Shown here: positions 18,305-48,317 of the stretch, one piece after another | Numbering within the stretch: the first letter of the stretch is position 1 | How the letters are laid out: each line of letters opens with the position of its first letter | Source: Bacteroidales bacterium | GTDB taxonomy: Bacteria; Bacteroidota; Bacteroidia; Bacteroidales; UBA12077 | Assembly (NCBI GenBank): GCA_963665525.1 | Contig: OY762280.1 | Coordinates: forward strand, 705,451 to 769,450 | Reading direction: 5' to 3' | DNA: 64,000 bases | Translations under genes and position numbers: made by a program | Notes under the pieces: generated by a model | Database searches by the model: none | Told to the model about the DNA's origin: nothing | What the model saw: the letters and a program-made list of their open reading frames with translations, nothing else

Positions 18305-20692
18305 ATGTTTAGAAATTATTTAAAAATAGCTCAACGAAATATCTTAAAACGAAAAGTTTTTTCTTTAATCAACATCGTTGGTTTATCGGTTAGTATTGCT
18401 GTTAGTATTTTAATATTACTTTATGCTGTGCACGAATTATCATACGATAGTTATTATGATAATGTTGATGCTAAGTATCGTGTTGTTTCGCATGTAATAC
18501 ACGGTGAAGAAGAGTATACCAATAATGTATCGAATGGAACACTGGCAGGCGATATTTTAGAAATAATCCCTGGGGTTAAAAATGCTTTCCAGGTATATAT
18601 TGATTTTCCATATGTTCAGGTTGGTAATGAAACATATTTAGAAGACAATTATGATGTTTATTATGCCGGGGATGGAATATTTGATTTTTTTTCAGTAAAA
18701 TTCACTGAGGGGAATCCTGAAACGGCATTGAAAGAACCTTTTTCTATTGTTCTTACAGAGACCTATGCTCATAAATATTTTGGGGATTCATTAGTATTGG
18801 GTAAATCCTTATTGGTTAATTCAAAATTGGAATATAAAGTAACCGGAGTTGTAAAGGATTTACCTGAAAATACTCATTTTAAGTTTAATATCTTATTCTC
18901 CTTACCATCTCTTTTAAAGACTTATGGTTTAAATGATTATCATCCATTTAGAAATTCTTTTATAACTTATGTTGAATTCTCACACAATGAGAATATTGAA
19001 CAAGTTGAGAAAAAGATAACAGAAATTTCATTGAGTTATTTACCTCCTCAATTAAAAGAAATGATTACTGTTTGGAAAACTTTACAGCCAATAAAAGATA
19101 TTCATTTAAAATCTGATTTTGAAGATAAATACAAGGGAGGAAATATTAAAATTATCTATATTTTCTCATCCATTGCCATATTAATATTACTACTTGCATG
19201 TATTAATTATATTAACTTATCTACTGCCCAATATTCTTCAAGAACAAAAGAGGTTGCTATAAGAAAAACAACAGGAGCGAACAGGAGTAGTCTGGTTAAG
19301 CAATTTATTACTGAATCGGTTATAATAATATTACTAAGTTTAGCAACAGCAATCGTTATTGCCGAATTTTTCTTGCCAATATTTAATACAATTATAAATT
19401 TCCAATTAAAAATAGCATATTTCGAGAAATGGTATAATGTACTTCTTATTCTGGGAGTAGGATTTCTTGTAAGTTTGATTTCATCGCTATATCCTGCATT
19501 TTATCTTTCGTCATTTAAAGTTGTTGATGTATTTAAAATGAAAATTCGTATTGGTAAAGGAAATATTAACATTCGAAGAGTTCTGGTTGTATTTCAATTT
19601 ACTGTGACTGTTTTTTTGATTATTAGTACTTTAATAATTAGTAAGCAGCTTAATTATGTGAATAATAAAGATTTGGGATTTAATAAAAATAACTTAATGA
19701 CTGTTAGGCTAAATAATAAACAGGCTATTAGTCAATTAGAAGTATTAAAAAATGAAATTGAAAATCTTTCTTGTGTTCATTCATCTACAGTTAGTTCTAA
19801 TTTTCCAAGTGGTACAGCTAGTTGGGAGAATATATTTGAATTTGAAGGCCATGAAAGTGAGCAATTTGATGTAATGCCATTATTAGATGTTGATTATAAT
19901 TTCTTAGAAACAATGCAAATTAGTTTATCTAGAGGGCGAAATTTTTCTACAGAATTTTTTACTGATTCAAATGCAGTATTAGTTAATGAAACTTTGGTTA
20001 AATTAATGAATTGGAAAGAACCAATAGGGAAGAAAATTATTGAGAGAGTTGAAGATAAGACTTATACATATCACGTGATTGGAATTTTTAGGGATTATCA
20101 TAAGGAATCGTTACATTCTGCTGTGAAGCCAATGATGCTTAGGTTAGCGCAGAGAAAAAGATATTTGTTGGTTAGATTGACTCATGATTTTTCAGAAGAA
20201 AATATTCAAGAGATAAAAGCAGTTTGGGATAAGTTTTGTCCAGGCAAACCTTTTCAAAATATTTTCATTGACGATGCCTTTGATAGGCTATATCAATCAG
20301 AAAGAAATTTATCAAATATTTTTATTTACTTTTCGGTTATTGCAATAATCATAGCATGTTTGGGACTATTAGGTTTAATAACTTTGTTTACTCAACAAAA
20401 AACAAAAGAAATATCTATTAGAAAAATACTTGGTGCAAAAGCTTCTAATATAACATTGATATTAACCAAGGAGTTTATTATACTTCAACTTATTGCTAAT
20501 GTAATAGCAATGCCTGTTGCTTATTTTGCTATGAACAAATGGCTGGCTGGTTTTACTTTTCATGTTAAAATTGGCTGGCTTGTTTTTGTATTAGGAGCCG
20601 TGATAACAGCTATTATTTCTATTGCAGCAATTAGTATTCAAACTTATAAAGCTGCAGTTTCTAATCCATCAGAAAACCTTCGTTACGAGTAG
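18305..20692 (+). CDS. MacB/FtsX-family permease 1, double FtsX module (about 8 TM, two periplasmic domains), no ATPase domain
   Basis: 795 aa. Family-typical N-terminus (YLKIAQRNILKRKVFSLINIVGLSVSIAV...ELSYDSYY). TM1 + ~240-aa loop + 3 TM, repeated once. C-terminus NPSENLRYE. Confidence 0.85.
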   Translation: MFRNYLKIAQRNILKRKVFSLINIVGLSVSIAVSILILLYAVHELSYDSYYDNVDAKYRVVSHVIHGEEEYTNNVSNGTLAGDILEIIPGVKNAFQVYIDFPYVQVGNETYLEDNYDVYYAGDGIFDFFSVKFTEGNPETALKEPFSIVLTETYAHKYFGDSLVLGKSLLVNSKLEYKVTGVVKDLPENTHFKFNILFSLPSLLKTYGLNDYHPFRNSFITYVEFSHNENIEQVEKKITEISLSYLPPQLKEMITVWKTLQPIKDIHLKSDFEDKYKGGNIKIIYIFSSIAILILLLACINYINLSTAQYSSRTKEVAIRKTTGANRSSLVKQFITESVIIILLSLATAIVIAEFFLPIFNTIINFQLKIAYFEKWYNVLLILGVGFLVSLISSLYPAFYLSSFKVVDVFKMKIRIGKGNINIRRVLVVFQFTVTVFLIISTLIISKQLNYVNNKDLGFNKNNLMTVRLNNKQAISQLEVLKNEIENLSCVHSSTVSSNFPSGTASWENIFEFEGHESEQFDVMPLLDVDYNFLETMQISLSRGRNFSTEFFTDSNAVLVNETLVKLMNWKEPIGKKIIERVEDKTYTYHVIGIFRDYHKESLHSAVKPMMLRLAQRKRYLLVRLTHDFSEENIQEIKAVWDKFCPGKPFQNIFIDDAFDRLYQSERNLSNIFIYFSVIAIIIACLGLLGLITLFTQQKTKEISIRKILGAKASNITLILTKEFIILQLIANVIAMPVAYFAMNKWLAGFTFHVKIGWLVFVLGAVITAIISIAAISIQTYKAAVSNPSENLRYE

Positions 20693-20693
20693 T

Positions 20694-22046
20694 TTAAAAT
20701 GATAAAGTAAAGGTCGTATTTGAATTTTGCTCCGATTGAACAGAAATACTACCTCCATGTAATCGCATAATTTGTTGAGCAAGGCTTAGTCCAATTCCTG
20801 AGCCTTGTTCTTTCGTTGTAAAAAACGGAATAAATATCTGATCCATAATATCTTTTGGAATTCCTGCGCCATTATCGCTAATTTCTAAATGGGGTTTACC
20901 TTTATGATTAATAAATGCTCTTAAGTTAATTTGCCCAGATTTTCCTGAAACTGCATCTACCGAGTTTTTTATCAGATTAATAAAAGTTTGTTCAATGTAT
21001 CTTTTATCAGCATTAATCTCCAGATCAATTGGTAAAATACTGATGTTAAGCTTAATTTCTTTTGTCTCAAGTTTTTCTTTTAACAAGAGTTCCAGGTTAT
21101 AAAAAAGCTCGGCAACTTTAAATCTCTCAAAGTTCATTGTTTTAAGAGAAGAAATACTACGGTAGTTATTTACAAAATCAACCAATCCTTCACCTCGTTT
21201 AGTTATGATGTGTAGACCTTCGGTTGTTTTTGAAATGATATGATCTGTAATTTCGGTTTTTGTGATAGCCCTGTTTTGTTCTTTTATAAAAAGCTTTTCT
21301 AATGAATTGGATAAAGAGGTAATAGGAGATATGGTATTGTTAATTTCGTGTGTTAGTATTCGAATTAATTTATGCCACGATTCGATTTCTTTTTCACTAA
21401 GTTCTGTTTCTATATTTTGAAACGAAACTAGTTTTAACTGATCATTCTTGATTTTAAATTCTGAAATTTTTATGGACAGTGGTAATGCTTTTGTTTGGCC
21501 TTTAATCATCATTGATTTCTCATCTCCAGAATGACTGTTCTTTAAAAAATGATAGAAATTAGGATGAATATTTTCAATTTCTTCAATCTGGTGTATCTTT
21601 TTTATATTAAGAAGCTCGGTAGCACTTTTATTAATTAAATCAACATGACCCGAACTATTAATTGTAATAATTCCTGTTTGTGCATGCTCTATAACCGTTT
21701 TATAATATGACTGTTGGATTTCTTTTAATTCGGTTATATTAAATAACTGATCTCTGATATAGTTAATATTATTTTGAAATTCTTGATTGATATAAGGAAA
21801 TACTTTATCGTGAAATGCAAACGAAGCATCTTGAGTTTTTAGTGCAGCAAAAAAGTTTACAATTTCGCGGTTAAAACGATTGATATATTTTAAAAGCAAA
21901 CCAATTTGCACGATTAGTAAAGCGATCAGGCTGAGTACTGTAAAAAGTTTTTCTGGATTACGAAAAAACGGAACAATGCTAATGCATGTTACAAGGATGA
22001 GAATTATCCTTACCAGTATGTTGATATAAAAATTTTTACTTAACAC
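20694..22046 (-). CDS. Sensor histidine kinase (module 2), short-loop 2-TM type
   Basis: 450 aa with a GTG start. TM1 NILVRIILILVTCISIVPFF, loop RNPEKLFT, TM2 VLSLIALLIVQIGLLLKYI. H-box ILTHEINNTISPI, G-boxes ISDNGAGIP and GSGIGLSLAQQIMRLHGG. Confidence 0.9.
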   Translation of the reverse strand: MLSKNFYINILVRIILILVTCISIVPFFRNPEKLFTVLSLIALLIVQIGLLLKYINRFNREIVNFFAALKTQDASFAFHDKVFPYINQEFQNNINYIRDQLFNITELKEIQQSYYKTVIEHAQTGIITINSSGHVDLINKSATELLNIKKIHQIEEIENIHPNFYHFLKNSHSGDEKSMMIKGQTKALPLSIKISEFKIKNDQLKLVSFQNIETELSEKEIESWHKLIRILTHEINNTISPITSLSNSLEKLFIKEQNRAITKTEITDHIISKTTEGLHIITKRGEGLVDFVNNYRSISSLKTMNFERFKVAELFYNLELLLKEKLETKEIKLNISILPIDLEINADKRYIEQTFINLIKNSVDAVSGKSGQINLRAFINHKGKPHLEISDNGAGIPKDIMDQIFIPFFTTKEQGSGIGLSLAQQIMRLHGGSISVQSEQNSNTTFTLSF

Positions 22047-23410: not shown

Positions 23411-23455
23411 TATATACTTAAAAATTGAATTGAACGTAAAATAAATTTACCTAAA

Positions 23456-23472
23456 TGTAAAAATATTTTACA
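23456..23472. promoter_or_regulatory. Inverted repeat TGTAAAA-ATA-TTTTACA (TGT-N11-ACA) in divergent region 2
   Basis: 7-nt perfect arms with a 3-nt spacer, about 65 nt upstream of the candidate -24/-12 element at 23537. Confidence 0.35.
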
Positions 23473-23536
23473 TTTTAAAAAAGTTTAATTAATTGAGTGA
23501 GGTTTAAAGCGCAGATTATCAATGAATAAATTATGT

Positions 23537-23553
23537 TGGCATTTTTATTGGCA
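23537..23553 (+). promoter_or_regulatory. Candidate sigma-54 -24/-12-like element upstream of FtsX permease 2
   Basis: TGGCATTTTTATTGGCA, 52 nt before the ATG. TGGCA is at -24. TTGGC stands in place of TTGC, so the GC is offset by 1 nt. Confidence 0.35.
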
Positions 23554-26006: not shown

Positions 26007-27371
26007 TTAAAACGATAAAATAAAAGTTGTAGTGTAATTAGAATCGGAAGAAGATACAACATAGATATTACCATTGTGTAATCGCATAATTTGACGAGCA
26101 AGGCTTAACCCTATTCCGGAGCCTTGCTCTTTTGTTGTAAAAAATGGCATAAAAATTTCGTCGATAATTTCCTGGTTAATCCCTTTCCCGTTATCACTGA
26201 TTGTAATTAGTAATTGATTATTTTTATCTTTTGTTGAACTCATCTTTATCGAATTGGCATCTGCTTCAAGCGCATTTTTAATTAGATTAATAATGATTTG
26301 TTCTATTTGATTTTTATCAATAAGAATGTGCTCCGTTAAATGATCTTCAGGTATCTTAAATTCAATTTTTTTATTTTCGAATTCGTTTTTCCAGAATGAT
26401 TTTATGTTTTCAAATAAATCTTTAATGATGATCTTTTCAAAGTTAGGTTTTGGTAATTTTGAAATTGATCTGAATTTATCGACAAATTGTTGCAATCCAA
26501 TATTCCTTTCTTTTACTATCTTTAATCCTGATGAAATATCACTGATGATCTCGTTATTTAAATGATCTATCTGAACTATTTGGTTATTGTCAGGGTTGGT
26601 GATTAACTCATTTAAAGTATCTATGGTTGATGAAATAGGCCCGATAGAGTTCATTATTTCGTGACGCAGAGTATGCACCAGTTTTTGCCACGATTCCAGT
26701 TCTTTTTCATCTAATTCATTTTTAATATCATGTATAGAAACAATTCTTAATTTCTCATCTTGGGTTTTAAAATCTGCCGAACGAAGTATTAATTGCAGCA
26801 ACTCTTTGTTCGCATTATTCGAAAGTGTAATTTTAATTAATTTGTGTTCTGTAGGAGAAAGTGTTTTTAAAATCTCTGCAAAATTAGGGTGAAAAACATT
26901 GAGTTCTTTAATATTTACAATATTGTTAAGCTTGAATAGATCTTTTAAAGCTTTATTAGCAAGTTTTACACTTCCTTTTTCATTAAAACTTAACAAACCA
27001 ACATTGGCTAATTCTGTTATGGTTTGGAAGTACTGATTTTCGCGAGCGCTTTTTTCTTTCAGTTTTAATATTTGATTATTTACAGTTTGTAATCTTCGAC
27101 TGAGTCGCATATAATTTATATGCTGAAACTCATTGGTTAATAAAATTGAAGAATCATCGTATTTGAGTGAATCAAAAAAAGCAATTAAATCACGATTTAG
27201 GTAATTTAATCTTCTAATTAGCAATATAACCTGTATGATTAATGCTCCAACTATATTTATATTGATAATAATATCTTGAAACTTTTTATGAGCAAATGGT
27301 AGTAAAAAGCAAGTTGCAGCAATTAATATAACTCTGATAATAATATTATAATAAAGGTTTTTAAATATCAT
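26007..27371 (-). CDS. Sensor histidine kinase (module 3), short-loop 2-TM type
   Basis: The ORF track extends to 27407. I prefer the Met at 27371 (MIFKNLYYNIIIRVIL), which aligns with the HK4 start MIYKRFYFNIIIRIIL and recreates the 11-nt ATG...TAA overlap seen in modules 1 and 4. H-box TLRHEIMNSIGPI, G-boxes ISDNGKGI and GSGIGLSLARQIMRLHNG. Confidence 0.85.
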   Translation of the reverse strand: MIFKNLYYNIIIRVILIAATCFLLPFAHKKFQDIIININIVGALIIQVILLIRRLNYLNRDLIAFFDSLKYDDSSILLTNEFQHINYMRLSRRLQTVNNQILKLKEKSARENQYFQTITELANVGLLSFNEKGSVKLANKALKDLFKLNNIVNIKELNVFHPNFAEILKTLSPTEHKLIKITLSNNANKELLQLILRSADFKTQDEKLRIVSIHDIKNELDEKELESWQKLVHTLRHEIMNSIGPISSTIDTLNELITNPDNNQIVQIDHLNNEIISDISSGLKIVKERNIGLQQFVDKFRSISKLPKPNFEKIIIKDLFENIKSFWKNEFENKKIEFKIPEDHLTEHILIDKNQIEQIIINLIKNALEADANSIKMSSTKDKNNQLLITISDNGKGINQEIIDEIFMPFFTTKEQGSGIGLSLARQIMRLHNGNIYVVSSSDSNYTTTFILSF

Positions 27372-28734
27372 ATCTCTCAATTTTTCTGTATAAAGTCTGA
27401 CGACCAATATTTAATTCTTTCGCTGTTTCACTTATGTTCCAGTTATTTCTCTGGAGTGCATTTCTTATAATGATTTTTTCTCCATCTTCGAGCGAAATAA
27501 CTTTGTTAAGCTCATCACTCGTTGATACCTGTTTTTCGAAAAAGAAATCTTCAGTAGTTAATGTGTTTTCATTACATAGAATAACTCCTTTTTCTATGGT
27601 ATGTCTTAACTCGCGAATGTTTCCTGGCCATGAGTAAGTAATTATTTTTTCAATGGCTTTATTATTGATTTTTAGTCCTGGTTTATTATATCTTTTTGAA
27701 AATAAATCTAAAAAATGATTGGTAAGAATAAGAATATCTTCTTTTCTTTCCCTTAGTGGTGGTAGATATATTTGAATGGTATTAATTCGATATAACAAAT
27801 CTTCTCTGAAAAGATTTTCTACAATTAATTGATCTATATTTTTATTTGTAGCTGATATGAGCCTAACGTCGAGAGGTATTTTTGTATTAGAACCAACTTT
27901 AGAAATTTCTTTATTTTGTAATGCAGTTAAAAGTTTGGCTTGCATCGAAAATGATAGATTACCTATTTCGTCTAGAAATAGGGTTCCGCCCGAAGCTGCT
28001 TCAAATTTACCTGTTCTATCTTCTTTGGCATCAGTAAAAGCACCTTTGCAATGGCCAAAAAGCTCACTTTCAAAAAGAGTTTCTGTTAGCGAAGCCATGT
28101 CGATATTCATAAAAATCTCATTATTTCTTGACGAGAGCTGATGAATTCTTCTGGCTATAAGTTCTTTTCCTGTACCATTTTCTCCTAAAATTAAAACATT
28201 TGCATTGGTTTTGGCAACTTTGCTTACAGTACTTAAAACCTTATCCATTGCCGTTGAATTTCCTATTATAAAATCAAAATCCTGATTAATATTTTGTTTT
28301 AGGATGTGCTCTTTATTTTCAAGTTCTTTTACTTTTAATTTTGATTTCCGTAACTCAAAAGCTGCATTTAAAGTTGCCAGTAGTTTTTGATTATTCCATG
28401 GCTTTTCAATAAAATCAAATCCACCATTTTTTATGGCTTTTACGGCTAGTTCTGTATCTGCATATGCAGTTATTAAAATTGTTATGATTTCAGGATCTAT
28501 TCTTGAGATTTCATTTAACCAAAACAAGCCTTCGTTACCTGTATTTATTCCTGCTGAAAAATTCATATCCAGAAGAACAATATCAACATGATTTGATCTA
28601 ATGGTATGTTGAAGATTGCTAGGATTACTAATTGTTAAAACTTCGGTAAACTTGTATTTTAAAAATAATTTAAGTGAATTAAGAACACTTTGATTATCAT
28701 CCACAATAAGTATGGTTCCTTCTCTAATATCCAT
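27361..28734 (-). CDS. Sigma-54-dependent response regulator (NtrC family), module 3
   Basis: 457 aa. ILIVDDN...IVLLDMNF, GENGTGKE, GAFTDA, LFLDEIG, HTH LNIGRQTLYRKIERYDI. Confidence 0.9.
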   Translation of the reverse strand: MDIREGTILIVDDNQSVLNSLKLFLKYKFTEVLTISNPSNLQHTIRSNHVDIVLLDMNFSAGINTGNEGLFWLNEISRIDPEIITILITAYADTELAVKAIKNGGFDFIEKPWNNQKLLATLNAAFELRKSKLKVKELENKEHILKQNINQDFDFIIGNSTAMDKVLSTVSKVAKTNANVLILGENGTGKELIARRIHQLSSRNNEIFMNIDMASLTETLFESELFGHCKGAFTDAKEDRTGKFEAASGGTLFLDEIGNLSFSMQAKLLTALQNKEISKVGSNTKIPLDVRLISATNKNIDQLIVENLFREDLLYRINTIQIYLPPLRERKEDILILTNHFLDLFSKRYNKPGLKINNKAIEKIITYSWPGNIRELRHTIEKGVILCNENTLTTEDFFFEKQVSTSDELNKVISLEDGEKIIIRNALQRNNWNISETAKELNIGRQTLYRKIERYDI

Positions 28735-28761: not shown

Positions 28762-28790
28762 TTGTTTATTTTCATTGATTCAAAATATGT

Positions 28791-28807
28791 TGTATGATTT
28801 TGGAACA
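28791..28807. promoter_or_regulatory. TGT-N11-ACA dyad in divergent region 3
   Basis: TGTATGATTTTGGAACA. It overlaps a direct repeat ATGATTTTGGA (28794-28804 and 28816-28826). Confidence 0.3.
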
Positions 28808-38547: not shown

Positions 38548-38564
38548 TGGCATAAAATGTGATA
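38548..38564 (+). promoter_or_regulatory. Candidate sigma-54 -24/-12-like element upstream of FtsX permease 5
   Basis: TGGCATAAAATGTGATA, 110 nt before the ATG. This is farther from the start than in the other five copies, and the -12 box is weak. Confidence 0.25.
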
Positions 38565-38657: not shown

Positions 38658-41042
38658 ATGCTTAAAAACCTTTTTAAAACTGCTATAAGAAATATATTTA
38701 AGGACTTTGGTTATAGTAGTTTAAATATTCTTGGTTTAACACTTGGAATTGCCAGTGCCTTATTTTTAATTATTTATATTGCTGATGAAATTAGTTATGA
38801 TAAATACCACGAAAATGCTGAACGTATTTATCGAGTGGCATCACACATAACAGAAACCGATGATGAATTTACCTGGATTGTTGCTCAAGTTCCTTTTGCA
38901 CCTCAAGTTGTACAGGATTATCCAGAAGTTGAGCATTCGGTTCGTTTTATTGATAACGGGCGCGAATTATTTAAATACGAGGATAAAGAGTTTTATGAAG
39001 AGAGTTTCTTTTACACAGATTCTAACGTTTTTGATGTTTTTACATACGAATTTATCAAAGGTAATCCTGTTGATGCTTTAACTGAACCAAACAACATAGT
39101 TTTAACAGAAACAGTTGCCGCAAAATATTTTGGTAAAGAAGATCCAATAGGTAAATCATTAGTAAATAGGGATGATACTTATAAAGTAACAGGAGTAATT
39201 AAGGATGTTCCTAATAATTCTCACTTTCGTTTCGAAGGCTTAATGTCAAGAAGTAGTTTACCTCCGGATTTTGGAAATTCATGGGGAAATTTTGGAGTTT
39301 TTACTTATTTGCTTTTGCCCGAACATGTAGATTATAAGGTTTTTGAGAGTAAGATACAGGAAATGTATGGAAAATATATGGCCGAGATTTTTGAACGAAT
39401 GGGAATTAAAATAGAGTATGTATTAGATCCAATTACAGATATTCATTTAAAATCTACATATCAAGGAGAACCTGAACCAACAGGGAGTTATGCTTATGTA
39501 ATAATATTTGCAATTGTTGCTTTATTCTTAATACTAATTGCAGCTATGAATTATATGAATCTGGCCACAGCTCGATCTACCAAACGTGCTCGTGAGGTTG
39601 GTTTAAGAAAAGTGGTTGGTTCTCATCGAGGTAGTTTAATATTTCAGTTTTTAACTGAATCAACAGTTTTAACATTTATTTCATTGTTGCTGAGTATAAT
39701 ACTCTTAATTCTTTTGTTGCCATACTTTAATCAATTGGCAGGTAAATCATTTAATATTGATGTTTTATATAGTCCGGTAGCAATTATAAGTATTGTATCA
39801 GTAATTGTTGTCGTAGGTATAATTGGGGGAAGTTATCCTGCTTTTTATTTATCGAAATTTAACCCCGTTATTGTGTTTAAGGGAGAAGTAACAAAAGGAT
39901 CTTCAGGAAGCATGTTTAGAAAAGTTTTAGTTGTGATTCAGTTTACGATATCGGTTGCCATGATTGTATCAACTTTGGTTGTTTATAAACAATTGAATTA
40001 TTTAAAAACAAAAGATTTGGGTTATGATATGGATAACGTTGTTAGTCTTGAGTTTACAACTCGACAAATGGTTGATAAATATCCAGTGCTAAAACAAGCA
40101 TTACTCGAAAATCCGAATATAAAATATGTAGGTTCAACAGGGACAAGAGTAGGAGAAGGTTCTGGGAAAGTAATTCTGAATGTTGAGACAGAAGATGGTA
40201 TGCAAGAAAGAGGAATTAACCTGGCAAGTGTTGATCATGATTTTATTGAGGCATTAGGAATTACAATGAAAGAAGGGAGAGATTTCCAGGAAAACATGCC
40301 ATCTGATACTCTTCTGGGAGTTATTGTAAATGAAACCATGGCAAAACGCTTGAATTGGGAAAATCCAATAGGAAAAAGAGTTGAGATGGAAGGTAGAGGA
40401 GGTCAGGAATTTCTTAGAGCTACAGTTGTTGGTGTTATGAAAGATTTTCACCAAACAGGAATGTATAACGAAATAGAAACAATCTTATATTTTTATCGTG
40501 TTAATAACCGTTTGGTTTACATAAAACTTACCGACGCTTCAGTTCAGGAAACAATAAAATTTATTGAGAATGCCTGGAATGAAGTATTTCCTGAACAGCC
40601 ATTTGAATATTCGTTTTTATCGGATAGATTTAATGAACAGTTTGGTGCTGACGAAAAAAGGGGCTTTATTTTTACTTTATTTACTGTACTGGCAATATTG
40701 ATAGCATGTTTAGGCTTGTTTGGATTAGCTTCGTATACCGTTGAACAACGTACTAAGGAAATTGGAATCAGAAAAGTTGTTGGCGCTAGTGAAGGAACTG
40801 TAGTGAAGTTAATTTCTCGAGAATTTTTAATACTGGCAACGATTTCAATTCTAGTAGCATTCCCATTATCTTTTTATTTTATGCGCGACTGGTTACAACA
40901 ATTTGTGTATAGAACTAATTTAGGATTATTTGTGTTTATAATTGCGGGATTAATTACAATAACGATAACTTTTATAACAATTAGCTATCAGGCATGGAAA
41001 GCAGCAAATGCTAATCCTGCAGAGTCGTTACGGGTAGAATAA
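38658..41042 (+). CDS. MacB/FtsX-family permease 5, double FtsX module, no ATPase domain, no adjacent two-component system
   Basis: 794 aa. N-terminus LFKTAIRNIFKDFGYSSLNILGLTLGIASALFLIIYIADEISYDKYH, two TM1-loop-3TM halves, C-terminus NPAESLRVE. Confidence 0.85.
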   Translation: MLKNLFKTAIRNIFKDFGYSSLNILGLTLGIASALFLIIYIADEISYDKYHENAERIYRVASHITETDDEFTWIVAQVPFAPQVVQDYPEVEHSVRFIDNGRELFKYEDKEFYEESFFYTDSNVFDVFTYEFIKGNPVDALTEPNNIVLTETVAAKYFGKEDPIGKSLVNRDDTYKVTGVIKDVPNNSHFRFEGLMSRSSLPPDFGNSWGNFGVFTYLLLPEHVDYKVFESKIQEMYGKYMAEIFERMGIKIEYVLDPITDIHLKSTYQGEPEPTGSYAYVIIFAIVALFLILIAAMNYMNLATARSTKRAREVGLRKVVGSHRGSLIFQFLTESTVLTFISLLLSIILLILLLPYFNQLAGKSFNIDVLYSPVAIISIVSVIVVVGIIGGSYPAFYLSKFNPVIVFKGEVTKGSSGSMFRKVLVVIQFTISVAMIVSTLVVYKQLNYLKTKDLGYDMDNVVSLEFTTRQMVDKYPVLKQALLENPNIKYVGSTGTRVGEGSGKVILNVETEDGMQERGINLASVDHDFIEALGITMKEGRDFQENMPSDTLLGVIVNETMAKRLNWENPIGKRVEMEGRGGQEFLRATVVGVMKDFHQTGMYNEIETILYFYRVNNRLVYIKLTDASVQETIKFIENAWNEVFPEQPFEYSFLSDRFNEQFGADEKRGFIFTLFTVLAILIACLGLFGLASYTVEQRTKEIGIRKVVGASEGTVVKLISREFLILATISILVAFPLSFYFMRDWLQQFVYRTNLGLFVFIIAGLITITITFITISYQAWKAANANPAESLRVE

Positions 41043-41070
41043 GACCTTGAAAATAATCATATTTAAAAAA

Positions 41071-41102
41071 CAAATTCCCGCTTTCTGTGGGAATTTGTTT
41101 TT
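41071..41102 (+). terminator. Rho-independent terminator after FtsX permease 5
   Basis: 9-bp stem CAAATTCCC (41071-41079) / GGGAATTTG (41089-41097) with a 9-nt loop, followed by TTTTT and preceded by an A-run. Confidence 0.75.
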
Positions 41103-41215: not shown

Positions 41216-42898
41216 ATGAAAACAAAAATCTATTTATTATTAACATGGCTATTCATATCAACAAGATTATTTGCACAAACATTTTATCAGGATTTATGGC
41301 AAGGAAATACAGAAAATGTTGAAGAATATATCAAGAATAATCCTGATATAGTTCATGATGTGAATCAATGGGGTTTGTCACCAATTCAAGTAGTAATTTC
41401 CTGGGGGCATAGAAATCATAAAGAAATAATAGATAAACTTTTGATAAATGGTGCTGATATCAATCAGCTTTCTAATAACGGGCGAACGGTTATCCATTTT
41501 GCAGCAGAGTCTGCTTCCATTGACTTATTAAAATACTTAATTGATAAAGGTGCTGATATTTCAATTCTAGATGATGATAACAATAGCGCATTATACTATG
41601 CTGTATTAAGGAAAGATAATCAGATTATTGACTTAGTTAATAATGAAACTATTCAACTACCTGCTACTGGAGAAAAAGGACGAAAGTTATTGTTAAGTGC
41701 AGTGTCATGTGGTAATGAAAAAATAGTGAATGCTCTAATTCAAAATGGGGCCGATATTTATGTAAAAAGAGCAGATGGGGCAACGCTTTTACATTGTGCA
41801 GCAGAAGGGAATATGATAAATTTGTTAGATCAATTGATTCGAGAAGGTTTCGATATTAATGCACAAAACAAATACTATTATACTCCTTTGCACTTAGCGG
41901 TTAAGAACAAGAATATTGGTGCTATAAAGAAACTGATTAAGAAAGGAGCTAATATTGAGAGTGAAACTAATACCGGACTAAAACCATATCATATAGCAAT
42001 TGAAAATGAAAATAAGGATATAGTAGAAATATTGGTAAACTCTGGAGCCAAAACTGATCAATTCGAATTTAATATTGTAGGAGAATATTTTGGACAAAAA
42101 CTGCCAGGAAGTATACCTGAAATTTTTGCTCCGGGAATTGTATCTACTATGGATGGTTTTGAGTTTGCCGGGGTATTTACTCCCGATAATAAAGAATTTT
42201 TCTTTACACAGCGAGGTTTGGGATTTGGGCAAAGAATCAGATATTTAAAAGTTAAAGATGGAAAATGGCAACGGCCAGATTTTGCACCTTTTACATATGA
42301 TTGTTTTGAGTTTGAACCTGGAATATCTCCTGATGGAGAGGCCATTTTCTATGGATCCATGAGACCATTGCCAGGTTCTGATGAGATAAACCGAAGTATA
42401 TTCATCTGGAAAGTAACAAAAAATGAAGGTTGGAAAAATCCGCAATTGATTGGTGGTGAGATGATGTATGTAAATGTTGCAGCTAATGGCAACATTTATA
42501 CTACTAGCCTCAAAAGAGATGGCGATAAGGGGATAATAAAAAGAGAATTGCATAAGAATGAATATAGCGATTTCATCAATTTAGGTGATAGTATAAATTT
42601 TATGTTGGGTACAGCTCATCCTTATATTGCTCCTGATGAAAGCTATGTAATTTTCGATGCACAACCTGAAGAATATGGTGAAAATGGAGCTTTGTTTATT
42701 AGTTTTAAAAAGAATAATGGAACCTGGACCAAAGCAAAAGCTTTTGGAGATGAGATTAATTTTGGCCAGGTCATGACCGCGTGGGTATCGCACGATCAGA
42801 AATATATGTTCTTTCATTCTACAGTAGATGGTTTTGGTGATATATATTGGGTTGATGCTTCAGTAATTCAAAAAATGAAAAAAGAAATATTGAAATGA
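41216..42898 (+). CDS. Periplasmic/secreted ankyrin-repeat protein fused to a PD40 (TolB-like beta-propeller) domain
   Basis: 560 aa. Signal peptide (LLLTWLFISTRLFAQ). About 7 ANK repeats (GRTVIHFAAESASIDLLKYLIDKGADI, GATLLHCAAEGNMINLLDQLIREGFDIN, YTPLHLAVKNKNIGAIKKLIKKGANI...). C-terminal ~275 aa are homologous to the three downstream PD40 proteins (GQKLPGSIPEIFAPGIVST, HPYIAPDESYVIFD, DIYWVDASVIQKMKK). Confidence 0.7.
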   Translation: MKTKIYLLLTWLFISTRLFAQTFYQDLWQGNTENVEEYIKNNPDIVHDVNQWGLSPIQVVISWGHRNHKEIIDKLLINGADINQLSNNGRTVIHFAAESASIDLLKYLIDKGADISILDDDNNSALYYAVLRKDNQIIDLVNNETIQLPATGEKGRKLLLSAVSCGNEKIVNALIQNGADIYVKRADGATLLHCAAEGNMINLLDQLIREGFDINAQNKYYYTPLHLAVKNKNIGAIKKLIKKGANIESETNTGLKPYHIAIENENKDIVEILVNSGAKTDQFEFNIVGEYFGQKLPGSIPEIFAPGIVSTMDGFEFAGVFTPDNKEFFFTQRGLGFGQRIRYLKVKDGKWQRPDFAPFTYDCFEFEPGISPDGEAIFYGSMRPLPGSDEINRSIFIWKVTKNEGWKNPQLIGGEMMYVNVAANGNIYTTSLKRDGDKGIIKRELHKNEYSDFINLGDSINFMLGTAHPYIAPDESYVIFDAQPEEYGENGALFISFKKNNGTWTKAKAFGDEINFGQVMTAWVSHDQKYMFFHSTVDGFGDIYWVDASVIQKMKKEILK

Positions 42899-43866
42899 GA
42901 AGAATTAGAATTTTAGTATTAACAGTTTTAGTTTCAGTCAATTTTGCTATAGGACAAACAAATGTAGATTTCTTTGGTCAAAAGCCAATTGGTGAGAATG
43001 CGGTTATATTTGCTCCTGCAATACTATCAACAATCCATCACGAGCATAGTAGATTAGAGTTTTCAAAAGATGGGAATGAAATATTTTGGGCTGTTATACC
43101 AATTGATACAGTTAAAAGAAATAAGCATCAGAATGCGTATTTAATTGATCAGCAAAAAATATGGCATATTTATAAAACAAAACAAGGTTGGTCAGAGCCT
43201 AGGGTTCTTGAATTTACTGCAGATTCGAAAAGTGGAGTGCCGACTTTATTGGTAGATCAGCAGTCTTTATTCTTTTACCAAACAGATCCTAATACTCCCA
43301 AAGATGTTCGTCCTAAAAAATCAAACTTACTATCCGTTAAAAGGAAGGGTGAAAATTGGGGTAAGCCTGAAATTATAGAAAATATGATACCTAAAGTAGA
43401 AGGAAAGGCTACTATGGCATTCACAATTGCAGATAATGGAAATGTATATTACGACTTGGGTGGACCTGATGAACATGGAAACTGGATTTGGAAAATATAT
43501 TTCAGAGAATTTAAGGATGGGAAATATCAAGATCCGATCATGCTTAAAAATAAAATTGATATTTCAATGGTAAACTGGTGCCCGTTTGTTGCACCTGATG
43601 AGAGCTATCTGATATTTTCTTCGCATAGGTATGGAGGTTATGGAAATGGCGATTTGTACATTTGTTTCAAAGGTAAAAATAATGGCTGGACTGAACCAAT
43701 TAATATGGGGCAGAGCGTAAATACATCTTCACAAGAACGATTCCCTTCGGTAAGTCCTGATGGTAAATACTTATTTTTTGCACGTCATCAGTATAAAACC
43801 TTTAATGATTATTTCTGGATAGATGCTTCAATAATTGAAAAATTAAAAAAACAAATATATAAATGA
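42895..43866 (+). CDS. Periplasmic PD40 (TolB-like beta-propeller repeat) protein, paralog 2
   Basis: 323 aa. Signal peptide. PD40-type motifs FVAPDESYLIFSSHRYGGYGNGDLYICF and SVSPDGKYLFFARH. ATGA start/stop overlap with the upstream gene. Confidence 0.65.
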   Translation: MRRIRILVLTVLVSVNFAIGQTNVDFFGQKPIGENAVIFAPAILSTIHHEHSRLEFSKDGNEIFWAVIPIDTVKRNKHQNAYLIDQQKIWHIYKTKQGWSEPRVLEFTADSKSGVPTLLVDQQSLFFYQTDPNTPKDVRPKKSNLLSVKRKGENWGKPEIIENMIPKVEGKATMAFTIADNGNVYYDLGGPDEHGNWIWKIYFREFKDGKYQDPIMLKNKIDISMVNWCPFVAPDESYLIFSSHRYGGYGNGDLYICFKGKNNGWTEPINMGQSVNTSSQERFPSVSPDGKYLFFARHQYKTFNDYFWIDASIIEKLKKQIYK

Positions 43867-44834
43867 AAACAATTAAAGTTCTAATAAGCTTATTAATCTT
43901 AAGTTGTAGTCTAGTCTATGCTCAAAATAATAATGATTATTTGGGTCAAAAATTTCCAGGAAGTACGCCTCAATTATTTGCACCGGGGATTGTTTCATCG
44001 GGTAATCACGATATGGATATTACTATTTCCCCAGATGGGAATGAGATTTTTTTTACAAGATGTGGAATAAATTGGTATGCTGAAATACTTTATGTCCAAC
44101 GAACTGAAAATGGTTGGCAAGATCCTGTTGTTTTACCTTGGACAATAACTCGTAATAATAATTATCCATTTGTATCTCCTGATGGAAATTATTTGTTATT
44201 TGAATCTAAGGTAAAGTCCAAAGAAGGAGATGGCGATAATCGTGAAGTATTTTATTGTAAAAAAACCAAGAGAGGATGGAGTAAAGCAGTTATTTTCGAT
44301 AATGGATTAAACACAGAATATGCAGAGATGTACACGAGTATTTCATCGAATGGTACCATATATTTTTGTGCCAATTATCCAGAAAGTAATGGTAGGTTTG
44401 ATATTTACAAGTTCAATCCCGATAAAGATACAAAAGCAGTTAATTTGGGTGATTCTATTAATAATGAGTCCAATGAATTTCATCCATATATTGCCCCTGA
44501 TGAAAGCTATATTATATTTGATGCATCGCGAGAAGAAGGATTTGGAAGTAATGATTTATACATTAGCTTTAAGAAATCAGATGGAACTTGGTCAAAAGCT
44601 GTTAATATTGGCGAATCTATAAACACTCCTTATTCAGATATGCGCCCATTTGTTACTTACGATGGTAAGTATTTGTTTTTTTCAAGTACCAGAACGTTAA
44701 AAGAAGATATGCCTAATAATGAAATAGATTATGAAATCTTTATGAACAAGATTAATTCTTCAGGCAATGGAAGCCAGGATATTTATTGGGTCGATGCAAA
44801 AATTATTGACGAACTTAAAAAGAAAGTATTATAA
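43863..44834 (+). CDS. Periplasmic PD40 (TolB-like beta-propeller repeat) protein, paralog 3
   Basis: 323 aa. Signal peptide. ISPDGNEIFFTR, FVSPDGNYLLFES, YIAPDESYIIFDASREEGFGSNDLYISF, DIYWVDAKIIDELKKK. ATGA overlap with the upstream gene. Confidence 0.65.
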   Translation: MKTIKVLISLLILSCSLVYAQNNNDYLGQKFPGSTPQLFAPGIVSSGNHDMDITISPDGNEIFFTRCGINWYAEILYVQRTENGWQDPVVLPWTITRNNNYPFVSPDGNYLLFESKVKSKEGDGDNREVFYCKKTKRGWSKAVIFDNGLNTEYAEMYTSISSNGTIYFCANYPESNGRFDIYKFNPDKDTKAVNLGDSINNESNEFHPYIAPDESYIIFDASREEGFGSNDLYISFKKSDGTWSKAVNIGESINTPYSDMRPFVTYDGKYLFFSSTRTLKEDMPNNEIDYEIFMNKINSSGNGSQDIYWVDAKIIDELKKKVL

Positions 44835-45763
44835 TGAGAAAAATAGTAATATTTATTCTAGTTGGATTTTCTTTTATAAATATTAATGCTCAAACAAATA
44901 TTGATTATTGTGGGCAAAAAGTGCCTGGAAAAATACCAGAGCTATTTGCCAAGGGAATTGTTTCTTCGAATAATCAGGAACATAGTTTACTTTGTATTTC
45001 GCAAGATGGAACAGAAATGTGGTGGAGTATTTGGGACTTACCCTATTCACCTGAAAGTGTGCAAAAAATATATTTTATAAAAAAAGAAGATGGGAAATGG
45101 CAACAGGCACAGTTAGCTCCATTTAGTGGAAAATACAGGGATGGAGGACCATTTTTAAGTTATGATGGGAATAAGTTATTCTTTTACTCTAGAAGACCTA
45201 TTATGCATGATTCTTTAGTAAACGATAATGATATTTGGTATATTAATCGAACTAAAGATGGATGGAGTGAGCCTGTAAATGCTGGTAATATTATAAATAC
45301 TGATTTTGTTGAGGCTAATCCTGTGCTGGTAAAGAATAACAATCTGTATTTTACGTCAAATCGAGATGGTAATCCTGATATTTATTTATCAAAGTTTATT
45401 AATGGAGATTATACCAAACCTGTAAAACTGAGCGAAAATATCAATACTAGAGATGCCCGCGAAATGTTCTTTACCGTTTCTCCTGATGAAAGCTTTATCA
45501 TATTTACTCGTGATGACAGAAAATTTTCAACTGAAGGAGAGTTATTAGGAGGCGACAGGAATTTAATGATCAGTTTTAAAAATGAAGATGGAAGTTGGGG
45601 ATATGCAAAAGATATGGGGAGTATTTTTAATGATAAAAAGGCTCGATTTCCAAGTTTATCACCCGATGGTAAGTATTTGTTTTTTACTCGTTATACTGAA
45701 GGTAATGATGAGGACTTTTATTGGGTTGATGCTAACATCATTAGAACCCTGAAGACAGAGTAG
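44834..45763 (+). CDS. Periplasmic PD40 (TolB-like beta-propeller repeat) protein, paralog 4
   Basis: 309 aa. Signal peptide. GQKVPGKIPELFAKGIVSS, TVSPDESFIIFTRDD, SLSPDGKYLFFTRY, FYWVDANIIRTLK. TAATG 1-nt overlap with the upstream gene. Confidence 0.65.
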   Translation: MRKIVIFILVGFSFININAQTNIDYCGQKVPGKIPELFAKGIVSSNNQEHSLLCISQDGTEMWWSIWDLPYSPESVQKIYFIKKEDGKWQQAQLAPFSGKYRDGGPFLSYDGNKLFFYSRRPIMHDSLVNDNDIWYINRTKDGWSEPVNAGNIINTDFVEANPVLVKNNNLYFTSNRDGNPDIYLSKFINGDYTKPVKLSENINTRDAREMFFTVSPDESFIIFTRDDRKFSTEGELLGGDRNLMISFKNEDGSWGYAKDMGSIFNDKKARFPSLSPDGKYLFFTRYTEGNDEDFYWVDANIIRTLKTE

Positions 45764-45853: not shown

Positions 45854-45870
45854 TGGAATATAGTTTGATT
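45854..45870 (+). promoter_or_regulatory. Candidate sigma-54 -24/-12-like element upstream of FtsX permease 6
   Basis: TGGAATATAGTTTGATT, 49 nt before the ATG. GG at -24, and TTGA in place of TTGC at -12. Confidence 0.3.
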
Positions 45871-45902: not shown

Positions 45903-48317
45903 ATGTTTAAACATAATTTAATAATTGCATTGAGGAATATTGTTAAGTATTGGAATTATTCAATAATTAACATTGGAGGTTTAGCAATAGGTTTAGCTAG
46001 TTTTATTTTTATCGTACTTTATATCGATGATGAATTAAAATACGATCAACATCACGAAAATGCAGAAAGTATTTATCGTGTTAACAGGTTGTATAATAGC
46101 AATGATGTAGATGAAGATGCTGCAACTTTATCATTTCCAGCAGGGCCAACACTTGTTTTAGATTATCCAAATATTGTAAAAAATCAAGTCCGGTTTTTTA
46201 ATCAACTAAGAAACCAATGGTTTTTTGATTATCAAAAAAATGAGGATGAAATCATTCGTTTTAACGAACCACGATTTATGTTAGCTGATTCAACGGTATT
46301 TGATGTATTTACATTTCCGTTTATTGAGGGAGATCCGGAAACAGCTTTAGATAACCCTGGAACAATTGTTGTTACAGAATCAACTGCTAAAAGATATTTT
46401 GGTGATGAACCAGCAATAGGAAAAGTATTACGTGTTGAGGAAGGTTTAAATTTTGAAATAACTGGTGTTATAGAAGATTTACCTACTCAATCGCATTTTA
46501 AAATTGATATTTTAGGTTCTTTAAATACATTTCGTCAGTTTAATAGGAATGGACAGTTCCCTCAGACCTGGATATGGAATCCTTGTTGGACTTATGTTCA
46601 ACTACACGATGGCATAGATCCTGGAATGCTTGACGAAAGAATGCCAGAATTTTATCAAAATCATTACAATGATCTGCAAGATGCTGATGTAACTTTATAT
46701 TTACAGGCACTTACAGATATTCATCTTAAATCTCATCATGTATATGAAATGAGGCCTAATAGTAATATCGTTTATGTTTATATATTGTCTATTGTTGCAG
46801 CTATCATTTTAATTCTGGCATGCATAAATTTCATGAATCTGGCAACTGCCAGTTCTGCCGGAAGAGCAAAAGAGATTGGGGTTAAAAAGGTTTTCGGAAG
46901 TCATAAAAAAAGTTTGGTTTTTCAGTTTCTTGGTGAAGCTGTTGTACAAAGCTTTGTTGCTATGTTAATTGCCATTATCATTGTAGAGCTTTTACTTCCG
47001 GGATATAATAATTTTACCGGGAAAAATATTACTCCTTCCTTTTTGGTTGAGCTAAAAATACTTGGTTTCATATTAGGTGTTGCTTTTGTTGTAGGACTGA
47101 TTTCTGGTATTTATCCTGCATTTATTCTTTCTTCATTTAAACCTTTAAAAGTGCTTAAAGGAGCATTAAAAAGTGGAGCAAAATCAGGAACAGCCCGAAA
47201 AGTGTTGGTTATTGTACAGTTTTCTATTTCAATAAGTTTAATTATAGGAAGTTTGGTAGTCTTTTCTCAACTAAAGTTCTTACGAAATGCGGAGCTCGGG
47301 TTTAAAAAAGATCATATTATTAACATTAGAAGAGTAGGGCCTTTGTTTAATAACTATGAAGCTTTCCGACAAGAACTATTAAGTCATAAAGATATTGATT
47401 TTGTTACCGGTGCAGAAGATTACTTAGGAATAAACCATAATACTCGTGATTATGAGGTTGAAGGACTTACTCCGGGACAAAGGTTTTATATTCCAACTTT
47501 TATGGTAGATTGGGATTTTATAGAGGCATTTGATATAAAGGTAGTTGAAGGACGAGCATTCTCTCGTGATTTCCCTAGCGATACTATCAATGCAGTAATG
47601 ATCAATGAAACCATGGCGAAAGATATGGGATGGTCGAATGCTGAAGCTATTGGTAAAAGAATTACTTCTAGAGATGGCGATGAGAGAGTAATTGGAGTTT
47701 ATAAAGATTTTAATGCCATGTCGTTACATCGTCCGGTGAATAAGTTTATTCTGGATATGTTCCGAAGACCAGATGTTTTTGCACGCGTAATATCAGTTCG
47801 GTTTAGCTCAAATAATTATCAAGAAGTGGTTAAGCATATTGAGAAAACATGGAATGATTTTGTTCCTACCAGGCCGTTCGAATATCAGTTTTTCGATCAA
47901 CAGTTAGATGATCTTTATAAAGATGAGTTGAAATTTGGTAGATTCTCTGTAATGTTAACTATTCTGGCTATTATAATTGCAAGTATGGGACTTATTGGGT
48001 TAACATCATTTTTGGCAGAACAACGAACAAAAGAAATTGGTATTAGAAGAGCTTTAGGGTCTTCAACAGGTGGAATTATAGGATTAATGGCAAAAGAGTT
48101 TTTATGGTTACTACTTGTTGCTAATGCTATTTCATGGCCAATAACTTACTATTTTACAACAAACTGGTTGGAGAGTTATTCAAAACATATAAATACTAAC
48201 TGGGGGATTTATGTTCTTTCTGGTATTCTTACCATGTTTATAGCAATGTCAATAATTACATACAGAGCATATAAAACAGCATTATTGAATCCTGCACAAA
48301 CTTTACGTTACGAATAA
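45903..48317 (+). CDS. MacB/FtsX-family permease 6, double FtsX module, no ATPase domain, no adjacent two-component system
   Basis: 804 aa. N-terminus LIIALRNIVKYWNYSIINIGGLAIGLASFIFIVLYIDDELKYDQHH, two TM1-loop-3TM halves, C-terminus NPAQTLRYE. Confidence 0.85.
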   Translation: MFKHNLIIALRNIVKYWNYSIINIGGLAIGLASFIFIVLYIDDELKYDQHHENAESIYRVNRLYNSNDVDEDAATLSFPAGPTLVLDYPNIVKNQVRFFNQLRNQWFFDYQKNEDEIIRFNEPRFMLADSTVFDVFTFPFIEGDPETALDNPGTIVVTESTAKRYFGDEPAIGKVLRVEEGLNFEITGVIEDLPTQSHFKIDILGSLNTFRQFNRNGQFPQTWIWNPCWTYVQLHDGIDPGMLDERMPEFYQNHYNDLQDADVTLYLQALTDIHLKSHHVYEMRPNSNIVYVYILSIVAAIILILACINFMNLATASSAGRAKEIGVKKVFGSHKKSLVFQFLGEAVVQSFVAMLIAIIIVELLLPGYNNFTGKNITPSFLVELKILGFILGVAFVVGLISGIYPAFILSSFKPLKVLKGALKSGAKSGTARKVLVIVQFSISISLIIGSLVVFSQLKFLRNAELGFKKDHIINIRRVGPLFNNYEAFRQELLSHKDIDFVTGAEDYLGINHNTRDYEVEGLTPGQRFYIPTFMVDWDFIEAFDIKVVEGRAFSRDFPSDTINAVMINETMAKDMGWSNAEAIGKRITSRDGDERVIGVYKDFNAMSLHRPVNKFILDMFRRPDVFARVISVRFSSNNYQEVVKHIEKTWNDFVPTRPFEYQFFDQQLDDLYKDELKFGRFSVMLTILAIIIASMGLIGLTSFLAEQRTKEIGIRRALGSSTGGIIGLMAKEFLWLLLVANAISWPITYYFTTNWLESYSKHINTNWGIYVLSGILTMFIAMSIITYRAYKTALLNPAQTLRYE

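Follow-up and report, generated by a model that had tools for sequence, protein, structure and literature searches.

Six duplicated FtsX permeases in a Bacteroidales gene cluster and a probable, shared adaptor-ATPase partner encoded elsewhere

The Permease Genes

A 64,000-nucleotide stretch of a Bacteroidales genome (assembly GCA_963665525.1, contig OY762280.1, positions 705,451 to 769,450 of the forward strand), called here the window, carries six paralogous genes encoding permeases in which two FtsX units are fused in one chain. These permeases, and the separately encoded adaptor and ATPase with which they most likely work, are the subject of the present analysis. Coordinates are those of the window, and loci of related genomes are cited by number (L001 and so on). 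The six genes are the following.

18305-20692, + strand: permease 1, 795 amino acids (aa), double MacB_PCD-FtsX, 8 transmembrane (TM) helices
23589-26006, + strand: permease 2, 805 aa, double MacB_PCD-FtsX; orthologs in L001, L005, L013 and L016
28939-31308, + strand: permease 3, 789 aa, double MacB_PCD-FtsX; orthologs in L001, L004, L005 and L009
34206-36569, + strand: permease 4, 787 aa, double FtsX, one MacB_PCD stretch above threshold
38658-41042, + strand: permease 5, 794 aa, modelled and used as query for related loci
45903-48317, + strand: permease 6, 804 aa, double MacB_PCD-FtsX; 92% identical ortholog in L005

With Pfam, FtsX is found twice in all six proteins and MacB_PCD twice in five of them, permease 4 showing it once above threshold. 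Hydropathy gives a topology of eight TM helices, arranged as two halves that each consist of TM1, a loop and three further TM helices, and the AlphaFold model of permease 5 agrees. Five of the proteins end in LRYE and one in LRVE. An earlier, sequence-only reading of this DNA had announced six FtsX paralogs of 787-805 aa, built as pseudo-dimers of TM1-loop-3TM halves and ending in LR(Y/V)E; open reading frames (ORFs) were found at exactly the starts that it gave, all on the + strand, and both the architecture and the ending are borne out.

The six paralogs share 30-38% pairwise identity, so the duplications must be old. Compared with their orthologs, they show proportions of nonsynonymous differences (pN) of 0.05-0.21 and of synonymous differences (pS) of 0.67-0.73. 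As pN lies far below pS, the permease genes are under purifying selection and thus probably functional. The G+C content of the window is about 31%, and all named close homologs of the permeases come from metagenome-assembled genomes (MAGs) of Bacteroidales or Bacteroidota. A Bacteroidota origin of the window is also supported by two proteins (36714-38432 and 59510-62764) bearing C-terminal sorting domains of the type IX secretion system.

ATPases of the Window

Two ABC ATPase genes are present in the window.

11091-11999, - strand: ABC ATPase of the DrrA/GldA type, excluded as partner of the six permeases
57856-58740, - strand: ABC ATPase of the DrrA/GldA type, paired with an ABC-2/M1-peptidase fusion, excluded as partner

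A strict Walker A scan of the 64 kb in six frames returned these two genes and a single chance match inside an AcrB gene, and the P-loop-class proteins encoded between the two ATPase genes are limited to four sigma-54 activators. The DrrA/GldA type obtains the top NCBIfam score for both ATPases, whose genes lie 1 and 16 nucleotides (nt) from those of permease proteins with 7 and about 14 TM helices. No MacB-class ATPase is encoded in the 64 kb, as tblastn with MacB-type ATPases from related loci reached only the genes at 11091 and 57856, at 31-34% identity. Their type, their own adjoining multi-TM permeases and this low identity led to the rejection of both as partners of the FtsX permeases. 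The sequence-only reading had likewise seen nothing but AAA+ regulators as P-loop proteins between 12000 and 57855, in agreement with the scan and the domain search, and had described both ABC ATPases as packed with their own permeases, which the distances of 1 and 16 nt confirm. The sole HlyD and OEP (TolC-like) genes of the window are part of an operon encoding an RND pump.

Family and Fold

The top NCBIfam model for all six permeases is ADOP (TIGR03434), which matches end to end over about 800 aa with 229-298 bits (E 1e-68 to 1e-89), the curated cut-off of 622.3 bits being reached by none of them. The second model, DarB (NF038008), scores 99-151 bits, below its equivalog cut-off of 700 bits. 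We take ADOP to stand for Acidobacterial Duplicated Orphan Permease, after the TIGRFAMs entry, whose description presumably presents the members as duplicated, highly paralogous and essentially never located beside an ABC ATPase gene. To our knowledge, that description assigns no function to the family. The permeases of the window share with it two FtsX domains per chain, membership of a paralogous family and the lack of an adjacent ATPase gene, but not the acidobacterial lineage, their close homologs being from Bacteroidales and Bacteroidota. They are thus a Bacteroidota sister group of a curated and named phenomenon. The sequence-only reading had presented the missing ATPase as an unexplained gap, which was overstated since duplicated FtsX permeases without an ATPase constitute a named family.

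The AlphaFold model of permease 5, computed from a 36-sequence alignment, has a pLDDT of 82.9 and a pTM of 0.74. Its top Foldseek match in the PDB is YbbAP (E 4e-17), and further matches include MacB, a permease domain of Porphyromonas gingivalis (3IS6), LolCDE, BceAB and HrtBA. The 4-TM FtsX unit in which a large periplasmic domain separates TM1 from TM2, characteristic of the type VII ABC superfamily, is present. The permeases are direct 4+4 TM fusions, whereas YbbP and BceB each possess 10 TM helices (PMC5985334; PMC12646458).

Coupling Helices

Two segments of permease 5 correspond to the helices by which permeases of this fold contact their ATPase.

39588-39614, + strand: major coupling helix 1 of permease 5 (residues 311-319, REVGLRKVV), between TM2 and TM3, a short helix in the model
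40752-40778, + strand: major coupling helix 2 of permease 5 (residues 699-707, KEIGIRKVV), between TM6 and TM7, a helix in the model

By phmmer, residues ~307-321 of permease 5 (TKRAREVGLRKVVGS) align to the TM2-TM3 segment of MacB (TERTQEIGVRMAVGA), which is its major coupling helix, and seven residues of this first coupling loop are invariant across the six paralogs. A coupling helix after TM2, which the sequence-only reading had proposed to look for, is present in both halves of all six permeases. Besides the cytoplasmic helices at 311-319 and 699-707, the model of permease 5 has a C-terminal minor helix at 787-792. Among 159 family members, the most conserved 15-residue stretch is 696-710 (EQRTKEIGIRKVVGA), which spans the second coupling helix, the third-ranked one is 293-307, reaching from the last part of TM2 into the beginning of the first coupling loop, and conservation is lowest in the periplasmic domains. 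Within the six paralogs, conservation amounts to 0.68 and 0.69 in the coupling loops, 0.73 in the C-terminal tail, and 0.52 and 0.47 in the periplasmic domains. In YbbAP, each of two equivalent helices holds one YbbA subunit, giving a 2:1 stoichiometry (PMC12646458).

An Adaptor-ATPase Engine beside the Permeases of Relatives

A scan restricted to one genome per species yielded 80 loci with permease-5 orthologs of 62-85% identity, whose neighbourhoods were examined within 10 kb. The close loci L001-L016 share synteny with the window, and the small ATPase described below is absent from them within this distance. At 31 of the 80 loci, all among the more distant ones, components of an OEP-HlyD-ATPase set are encoded, with the ATPase included at 30. 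The adaptor and the ATPase are together referred to below as the engine.

The engine ATPase, 220-234 aa long, scores first with DarD (280-286 bits, below the NF038007 equivalog cut-off of 375 bits), then with a bacteriocin-export ABC ATPase, and then with LolD, MacB, FtsE and YbbA, all of the MacB class. It is 90-100% identical among the 30 loci and 84-90% identical across the best 120 database clusters. L028 and L021 display the gene order HlyD, ATPase, small ORF, OEP and permease-5 ortholog on one strand, with two more permeases following in L028. Each of the 30 ATPase-bearing loci has a single such ATPase for one to four full-length permeases, two to four in 23 of them. In 9 loci a permease gene comes immediately 3' of the ATPase gene; in 20 others it does not, and the engine operon is therefore often without a permease of its own.

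A small ORF of 98-157 aa without Pfam match lies 3' of the DarD-like ATPase in every engine operon examined (L082, 10842-11138; L088, 11043-11339; L028, 8151-8522; L021, 1960-2433). At E 1e-5, BLAST did not match the ORF of L088 to those of L028 or L021.

Permeases and Engine Apart in One Genome

Both halves of the arrangement occur in the closely related genome MAG82 (GCA_020444275.1). Its permease cluster, L005, lies on contig JAHLLG010000002.1 and is syntenic with the window: a response regulator gene is followed by a permease-2 ortholog, a histidine kinase-response regulator pair, a permease-3 ortholog, a permease-5 ortholog (82%), a permease-6 ortholog (92%), a metallo-beta-lactamase-fold gene and an AraC gene. 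On contig JAHLLG010000001.1 (ATPase P0229), a histidine kinase and a response regulator are divergent from a membrane-fusion protein gene and an ATPase gene, and an FtsX gene is absent within 10 kb. Thus, permeases without an ATPase and an adaptor-ATPase operon without a permease are found in one related genome.

A like operon occurs in Bacteroidetes bacterium GWC2_33_15 (ATPase P0221), with a membrane-fusion protein of 417 aa, an ATPase of 227 aa and a 98-aa ORF; genes for a histidine kinase and a sigma-54 response regulator run divergently from it, and neither an FtsX nor an OEP gene lies within 10 kb. Near the adaptor-ATPase operons of L082 and L088, no OEP gene was found either, and tblastn with all six permeases against the permease-less engine loci gave zero matches. 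The kinases and regulators of the engine operons are homologous to four pairs encoded in the window, with 33-38% and 47-52% identity, respectively. An 803-aa ORF adjoining the ATPase in L088 was considered as a hidden permease and rejected, being a TPR protein. A same-genome link through the GWC2_33_15 and GWF2_33_16 accessions was dropped because they are two different MAGs, and the same-assembly link is provided by MAG82.

Kinase-Regulator Pairs

Four of the permeases of the window are each preceded by a divergent two-component gene pair.

16776-18140, - strand: response regulator 1, REC, sigma-54 activator AAA+ and Fis-type helix-turn-helix domains, divergent from permease 1
15452-16786, - strand: histidine kinase 1, two N-terminal TM helices, 6-aa loop
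22049-23410, - strand: response regulator 2 (sigma-54 activator), divergent from permease 2
20694-22046, - strand: histidine kinase 2, TM hairpin, 5-aa loop
27361-28734, - strand: response regulator 3 (sigma-54 activator), divergent from permease 3
26007-27407, - strand: histidine kinase 3, TM hairpin, 5-aa loop
32649-34022, - strand: response regulator 4 (sigma-54 activator), divergent from permease 4
31310-32659, - strand: histidine kinase 4, TM hairpin, 8-aa loop, weak PAS match

All four regulators are of the NtrC type, with REC, Sigma54_activat and HTH_8 domains. The four kinases have an N-terminal TM pair joined by 5-8 residues, no periplasmic domain, and about 170 cytoplasmic residues with a weak PAS match ahead of the DHp domain. 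No kinase gene is adjacent to permeases 5 and 6. Intramembrane-sensing kinases, of which BceS is an example, have such a TM hairpin with a short loop and sense through their FtsX-class transporter. Given this topology, the permeases may act as co-sensors.

Candidate Promoter Elements and Repeats

The regions upstream of the permease genes hold candidate sigma-54 promoter elements and repeats.

18244-18270, + strand: two overlapping sigma-54-like -24/-12 candidates (CGGAATAAGATTGGCA, TGGCATACACCTAACT), upstream of permease 1
23537-23552, + strand: sigma-54-like element TGGCATTTTTATTGGC, 52 nt 5' of the ATG of permease 2
28894-28909, + strand: weak sigma-54-like element TGGTATAAGATTAGAT of permease 3, three mismatches, under the test threshold
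34169-34184, + strand: sigma-54-like element TGGTATAATGTTGGCA, 37 nt 5' of the ATG of permease 4
38548-38563, + strand: sigma-54-like element TGGCATAAAATGTGAT, 110 nt 5' of the ATG of permease 5
45854-45869, + strand: sigma-54-like element TGGAATATAGTTTGAT, 49 nt 5' of the ATG of permease 6
18148-18195, no strand: inverted repeat with 22-nt arms, 82% complementary, 5' of the permease 1 element, candidate activator site
23453-23475, no strand: perfect 10-nt inverted repeat, 5' of the permease 2 element, candidate activator site
28788-28829, no strand: direct repeat of 20 nt, 85% identical, 22-nt spacing, 5' of permease 3, candidate activator site
34064-34106, no strand: perfect 14-nt inverted repeat (AATTGTATAAAATA / TATTTTATACAATT, 15-nt spacer), 63-105 nt 5' of the permease 4 element, candidate activator site
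41066-41102, + strand: perfect 14-nt stem, 24 nt after the stop of permease 5, probable terminator

With no more than 2 mismatches allowed, the canonical pattern TGGCAY-N5-TTGCW is present on the + strand upstream of five of the six permease genes, at 37-110 nt from the ATG (P about 1.7e-5; 0 of 5000 shuffles), and these account for five of the eight non-coding matches of the window. This positional test on the six upstream regions is the only significant one: over the whole window, neither the canonical pattern (58 matches observed, 47 expected) nor a data-derived promoter pattern (20 observed, 16 expected) is enriched. Similar elements stand 5' of the membrane-fusion protein gene in L082 (TGGCATAATTCGTGAT) and L088 (TGGCATAGTAAATGAT). 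Since several -12 boxes are non-canonical, we infer the sigma-54 dependence of the permease genes from the resemblance and position of these elements.

The repeats 5' of the elements of permeases 1-4 are situated at 50-120 nt, the distance expected of activator sites. Perfect 14-nt repeats are found twice in the 64 kb, at 34064-34106 and 41066-41102. If the latter is a terminator, permease 5 would be its own transcription unit.

Other repeats accompany the permease-5 orthologs. A tandem direct repeat GTTAAT-N5-GTTAAT (e.g. TGTTAATCTTCTGTTAATG) is located ~60-110 nt 5' of many of the distant ones (L019-L079), whereas the closer ones of L001, L004, L009 and L013 have TTTAAC-N6-TTTAAC instead, and no sigma-54-like element was noted in the sequences with these repeats. 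They look like the site of another regulator, so the control of permease 5 appears rewired between lineages. Palindromes of the type TACGAA...TTCGTA are present 5' of the adaptor-ATPase operon in L088 (8540-8585, e.g. TGTACGAATTCGTAC) and L082 (8555-8600), as well as in the leaders of the permease-5 orthologs of L001, L004 and L009, ~40 nt 5' of the gene (position 10001). They may represent a shared operator or an RNA structure.

Proposed Mechanism and Alternatives

The six proteins are genuine type VII (MacB/FtsX-class) ABC permeases of an ADOP/DarB-like kind, probably functional, served by a shared and remote adaptor-ATPase engine and transcribed from sigma-54-type promoters of their own. 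They most likely depend on a DarD/MacB-like ATPase that is encoded in trans and shared, together with a MacA-like adaptor. One of the two possibilities raised by the sequence-only reading, that a single distant ATPase of the LolD/MacB type serves many permeases, is supported by the 30 related loci and by the split arrangement in MAG82.

According to this model, each permease would bind, through its two coupling helices, a dimer of the separately encoded and highly conserved DarD/LolD/MacB-like ATPase. The permease, a membrane-fusion protein of the MacA type and a TolC-like outer-membrane factor would together form a tripartite mechanotransmission pump expelling or extracting compounds from the periplasm or from the outer leaflet of the inner membrane; efflux is the presumed function. 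The engine would form a separate operon elsewhere in the genome, and one and the same ATPase would be physically common to many permeases. The latter would be specificity modules that can replace one another and differ in their periplasmic domains, every one having a sigma-54-type promoter of its own and four of them standing beside a dedicated pair made of a histidine kinase with intramembrane topology and an NtrC-type activator. The divergent periplasmic domains and the separate sigma-54 switches suggest a battery of substrate-specific and separately inducible pumps.

A more elaborate model can be put forward tentatively, in which efflux in Bacteroidales follows a plug-in principle: a near-invariant adaptor-ATPase engine, controlled by a sigma-54 two-component switch, would be common to interchangeable double-FtsX permeases, each of them induced through a kinase of intramembrane topology and a sigma-54 activator of its own and possibly a co-sensor of that kinase. 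By analogy with YbbAP-TesA, some permeases might then pass substrates to co-encoded exported hydrolases.

Several points weigh against a shared remote engine. Its linkage to permeases is seen in the more distant orthologs only (62-70% identity) and nowhere in L001-L016, and the gene of the partner ATPase itself is seen in relatives only, its absence being established for the 64-kb window. The same-genome evidence comes from a MAG with orthologs of 55-92% identity, and the binning of MAGs can mix contigs. The high conservation of the ATPase is weak evidence for a hub role because ABC nucleotide-binding domains always exceed their permeases in conservation. Concerning the promoters, several -12 elements depart from TTGC (GTGA, TTGA, TTGG), and that of permease 3 is under threshold. 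A literature search found no paper on ADOP or on double-FtsX orphan permeases of Bacteroidota.

Alternatively, the permeases could chiefly be signalling partners, detecting ligands as co-sensors of the adjacent kinases in a BceB/BceS-like manner, with transport secondary or absent. The four kinases, with their TM pair, loops of 5-8 residues and no periplasmic sensor domain, are in line with this, as are the kinase-regulator pairs adjoining permease orthologs in L001, L004, L005, L009, L013, L016 and L028 and the presence of BceAB among the structural matches. Such a role as the main one is nevertheless unlikely: permeases 5 and 6 have no adjacent kinase, a homologous pair also flanks the permease-less adaptor-ATPase operon, the cytoplasmic linker of ~170 residues with its weak PAS match could sense alone, and the regulators are of the NtrC rather than the OmpR type. 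Besides, sensing of the BceB type still requires the ATPase. It is also quite unlikely that every permease has a dedicated ATPase of its own, scattered through the genome, so that the genes would be unlinked and the engine not shared. Indeed, related multi-permease clusters have one DarD-like ATPase for up to four full-length permeases, permease-less adaptor-ATPase operons exist, and the coupling-helix motifs are nearly alike in the six paralogs, as one common partner would predict. In favour of dedicated ATPases, the ATPase gene content is known for the 64-kb window only, MacB-type ATPases are very abundant in Bacteroidales (8000 candidates passing E 1e-30), and a second, FtsE-like ATPase is encoded at some loci.

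The other possibility of the sequence-only reading, a function without ATP hydrolysis, would leave the permeases as passive scaffolds, channels or receptors in which ABC coupling has been lost. It could draw on the lack of a partner ATPase within 64 kb and on the ADOP family not being known to have an assigned function. It is unsupported because the segments that contact an ATPase, namely the major coupling helices and the C-terminal minor helix with its LRYE tail, are the most conserved parts, and retention of precisely these would be unexpected in a permease no longer working with an ATPase. As orthologs share an operon with an ATPase and all solved relatives operate with a nucleotide-binding domain, such a function is very improbable. 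That the ORFs are decaying or silent duplicates is hardly credible, all six being intact and of family-typical length, with orthologs retained in many MAGs and with pN values of 0.05-0.21 against a pS of ~0.7 that indicate purifying selection.

Comparison with Known Systems

E. coli YbbAP-TesA (PDB 9GE6, 9GE7; PMC12646458) resembles the permeases of the window by its single-chain pseudo-dimeric permease with two periplasmic domains, by two coupling helices that each take one copy of a separate ATPase, and by its exported esterase partner, exported esterases flanking permease 6. YbbP differs by its 10 TM helices, including two linker helices, against 8 here, and identity is 13%. Moreover, ybbA adjoins ybbP, and neither an adaptor nor an outer-membrane factor belongs to YbbAP.

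The DarBCD exporter of darobactin also combines a fused double-FtsX permease with a separate ATPase and a membrane-fusion protein; DarB is the second-best model for the permeases and DarD the best one for the ATPase of the related loci. Scores remain below 700 bits for DarB and 375 bits for DarD, and the permease genes of the window are multiplied and unlinked from the ATPase. Unlike in the darobactin cluster, no radical-SAM or precursor genes for peptide biosynthesis occur among the ORFs of the window. MacAB-TolC shares the 4-TM FtsX unit, the periplasmic core domain and the coupling-helix motif, and the relatives encode an HlyD-type adaptor and an OEP. Whereas MacB is a homodimer with an N-terminally fused ATPase, the halves are fused here and the ATPase would be separate and remote.

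In BceAB-BceRS, an FtsX-class permease likewise stands beside a two-component system with a hairpin kinase devoid of extracellular sensor, and BceAB is a structural match. BceB, by contrast, has 10 TM helices and one extracellular domain, and BceA adjoins it, whereas the permeases here have 8 TM helices and no adjacent ATPase. BceR is of the OmpR type against NtrC-type sigma-54 activators here, in a Gram-negative host. With ADOP, the permeases have in common the full-length match, two FtsX units per chain, many paralogs per genome and the ATPase gene not being adjacent. They differ by scores far under the cut-off, a Bacteroidales host and sigma-54 two-component neighbours, as well as by relatives with a linked ATPase, adaptor and outer-membrane factor, which ADOP genes presumably have essentially never.

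Group II ECF transporters and the multitask importer ATPases of the MsiK type provide one energising module for many separately encoded specificity components. Their folds are unrelated to the permeases and they are importers, so the likeness is an analogy only. The literature searched documents no type VII ABC system in which one energising module is shared.

Duplicated FtsX permeases without an ATPase are among the largest unexplained paralog families of Acidobacteria and Bacteroidota and are annotated just as "ABC transporter permease". This kind of orphan permease is already known (ADOP-like); what is added here is a specific partner and a testable modular model. The comparative evidence proposes a testable identity for this partner, namely a single-copy and probably shared DarD-like ATPase together with a MacA-like adaptor. 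Should this be confirmed, many inducible routes of efflux or detoxification in environmental and gut Bacteroidales would have one ATPase as their single point of failure, and the shared-engine principle would reach from importers to type VII mechanotransmission pumps. The plug-in system, if true, would mirror on the export side the energising module that group II ECF importers have in common, and would offer a mechanism for the ADOP-type orphans, which have long lacked an explanation.

Neighbouring Genes

The genes between and after permeases 5 and 6 (41216-45763 and 48433-53093) encode exclusively proteins with N-terminal signal peptides: an ankyrin-repeat protein, three paralogous PD40 beta-propellers, two esterase-TPR proteins, an FG-GAP protein and a metallo-beta-lactamase-fold protein. 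A gene for an AraC/GyrI-like regulator comes after this group. PD40 genes are likewise found downstream of the permease cluster in L028 (18555-21538). The layout of exported genes around permeases 5 and 6 is reminiscent of YbbAP and its exported esterase TesA. On the other side of the array, a gene for an S41 (tail-specific-type) peptidase and one for a weakly M3-like peptidase (12211-15358, - strand) adjoin the first kinase-regulator-permease module.

The region 1901-11999 (- strand) looks like one composite operon encoding the DrrA/GldA-type ATPase, a 1116-aa protein, an OEP, an HlyD adaptor and an AcrB-type RND pump. The 1116-aa protein has seven N-terminal TM helices and a C-terminal Golvesin_C domain. 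Such an association of an ABC-2 system and an RND pump in one gene string is unusual. A 1206-aa protein in which an M1 aminopeptidase domain is fused to an ABC-2 membrane domain (~14 TM) is encoded with its own ATPase at 54219-58740 (- strand), an arrangement that is kept in the relatives L084 and L085.

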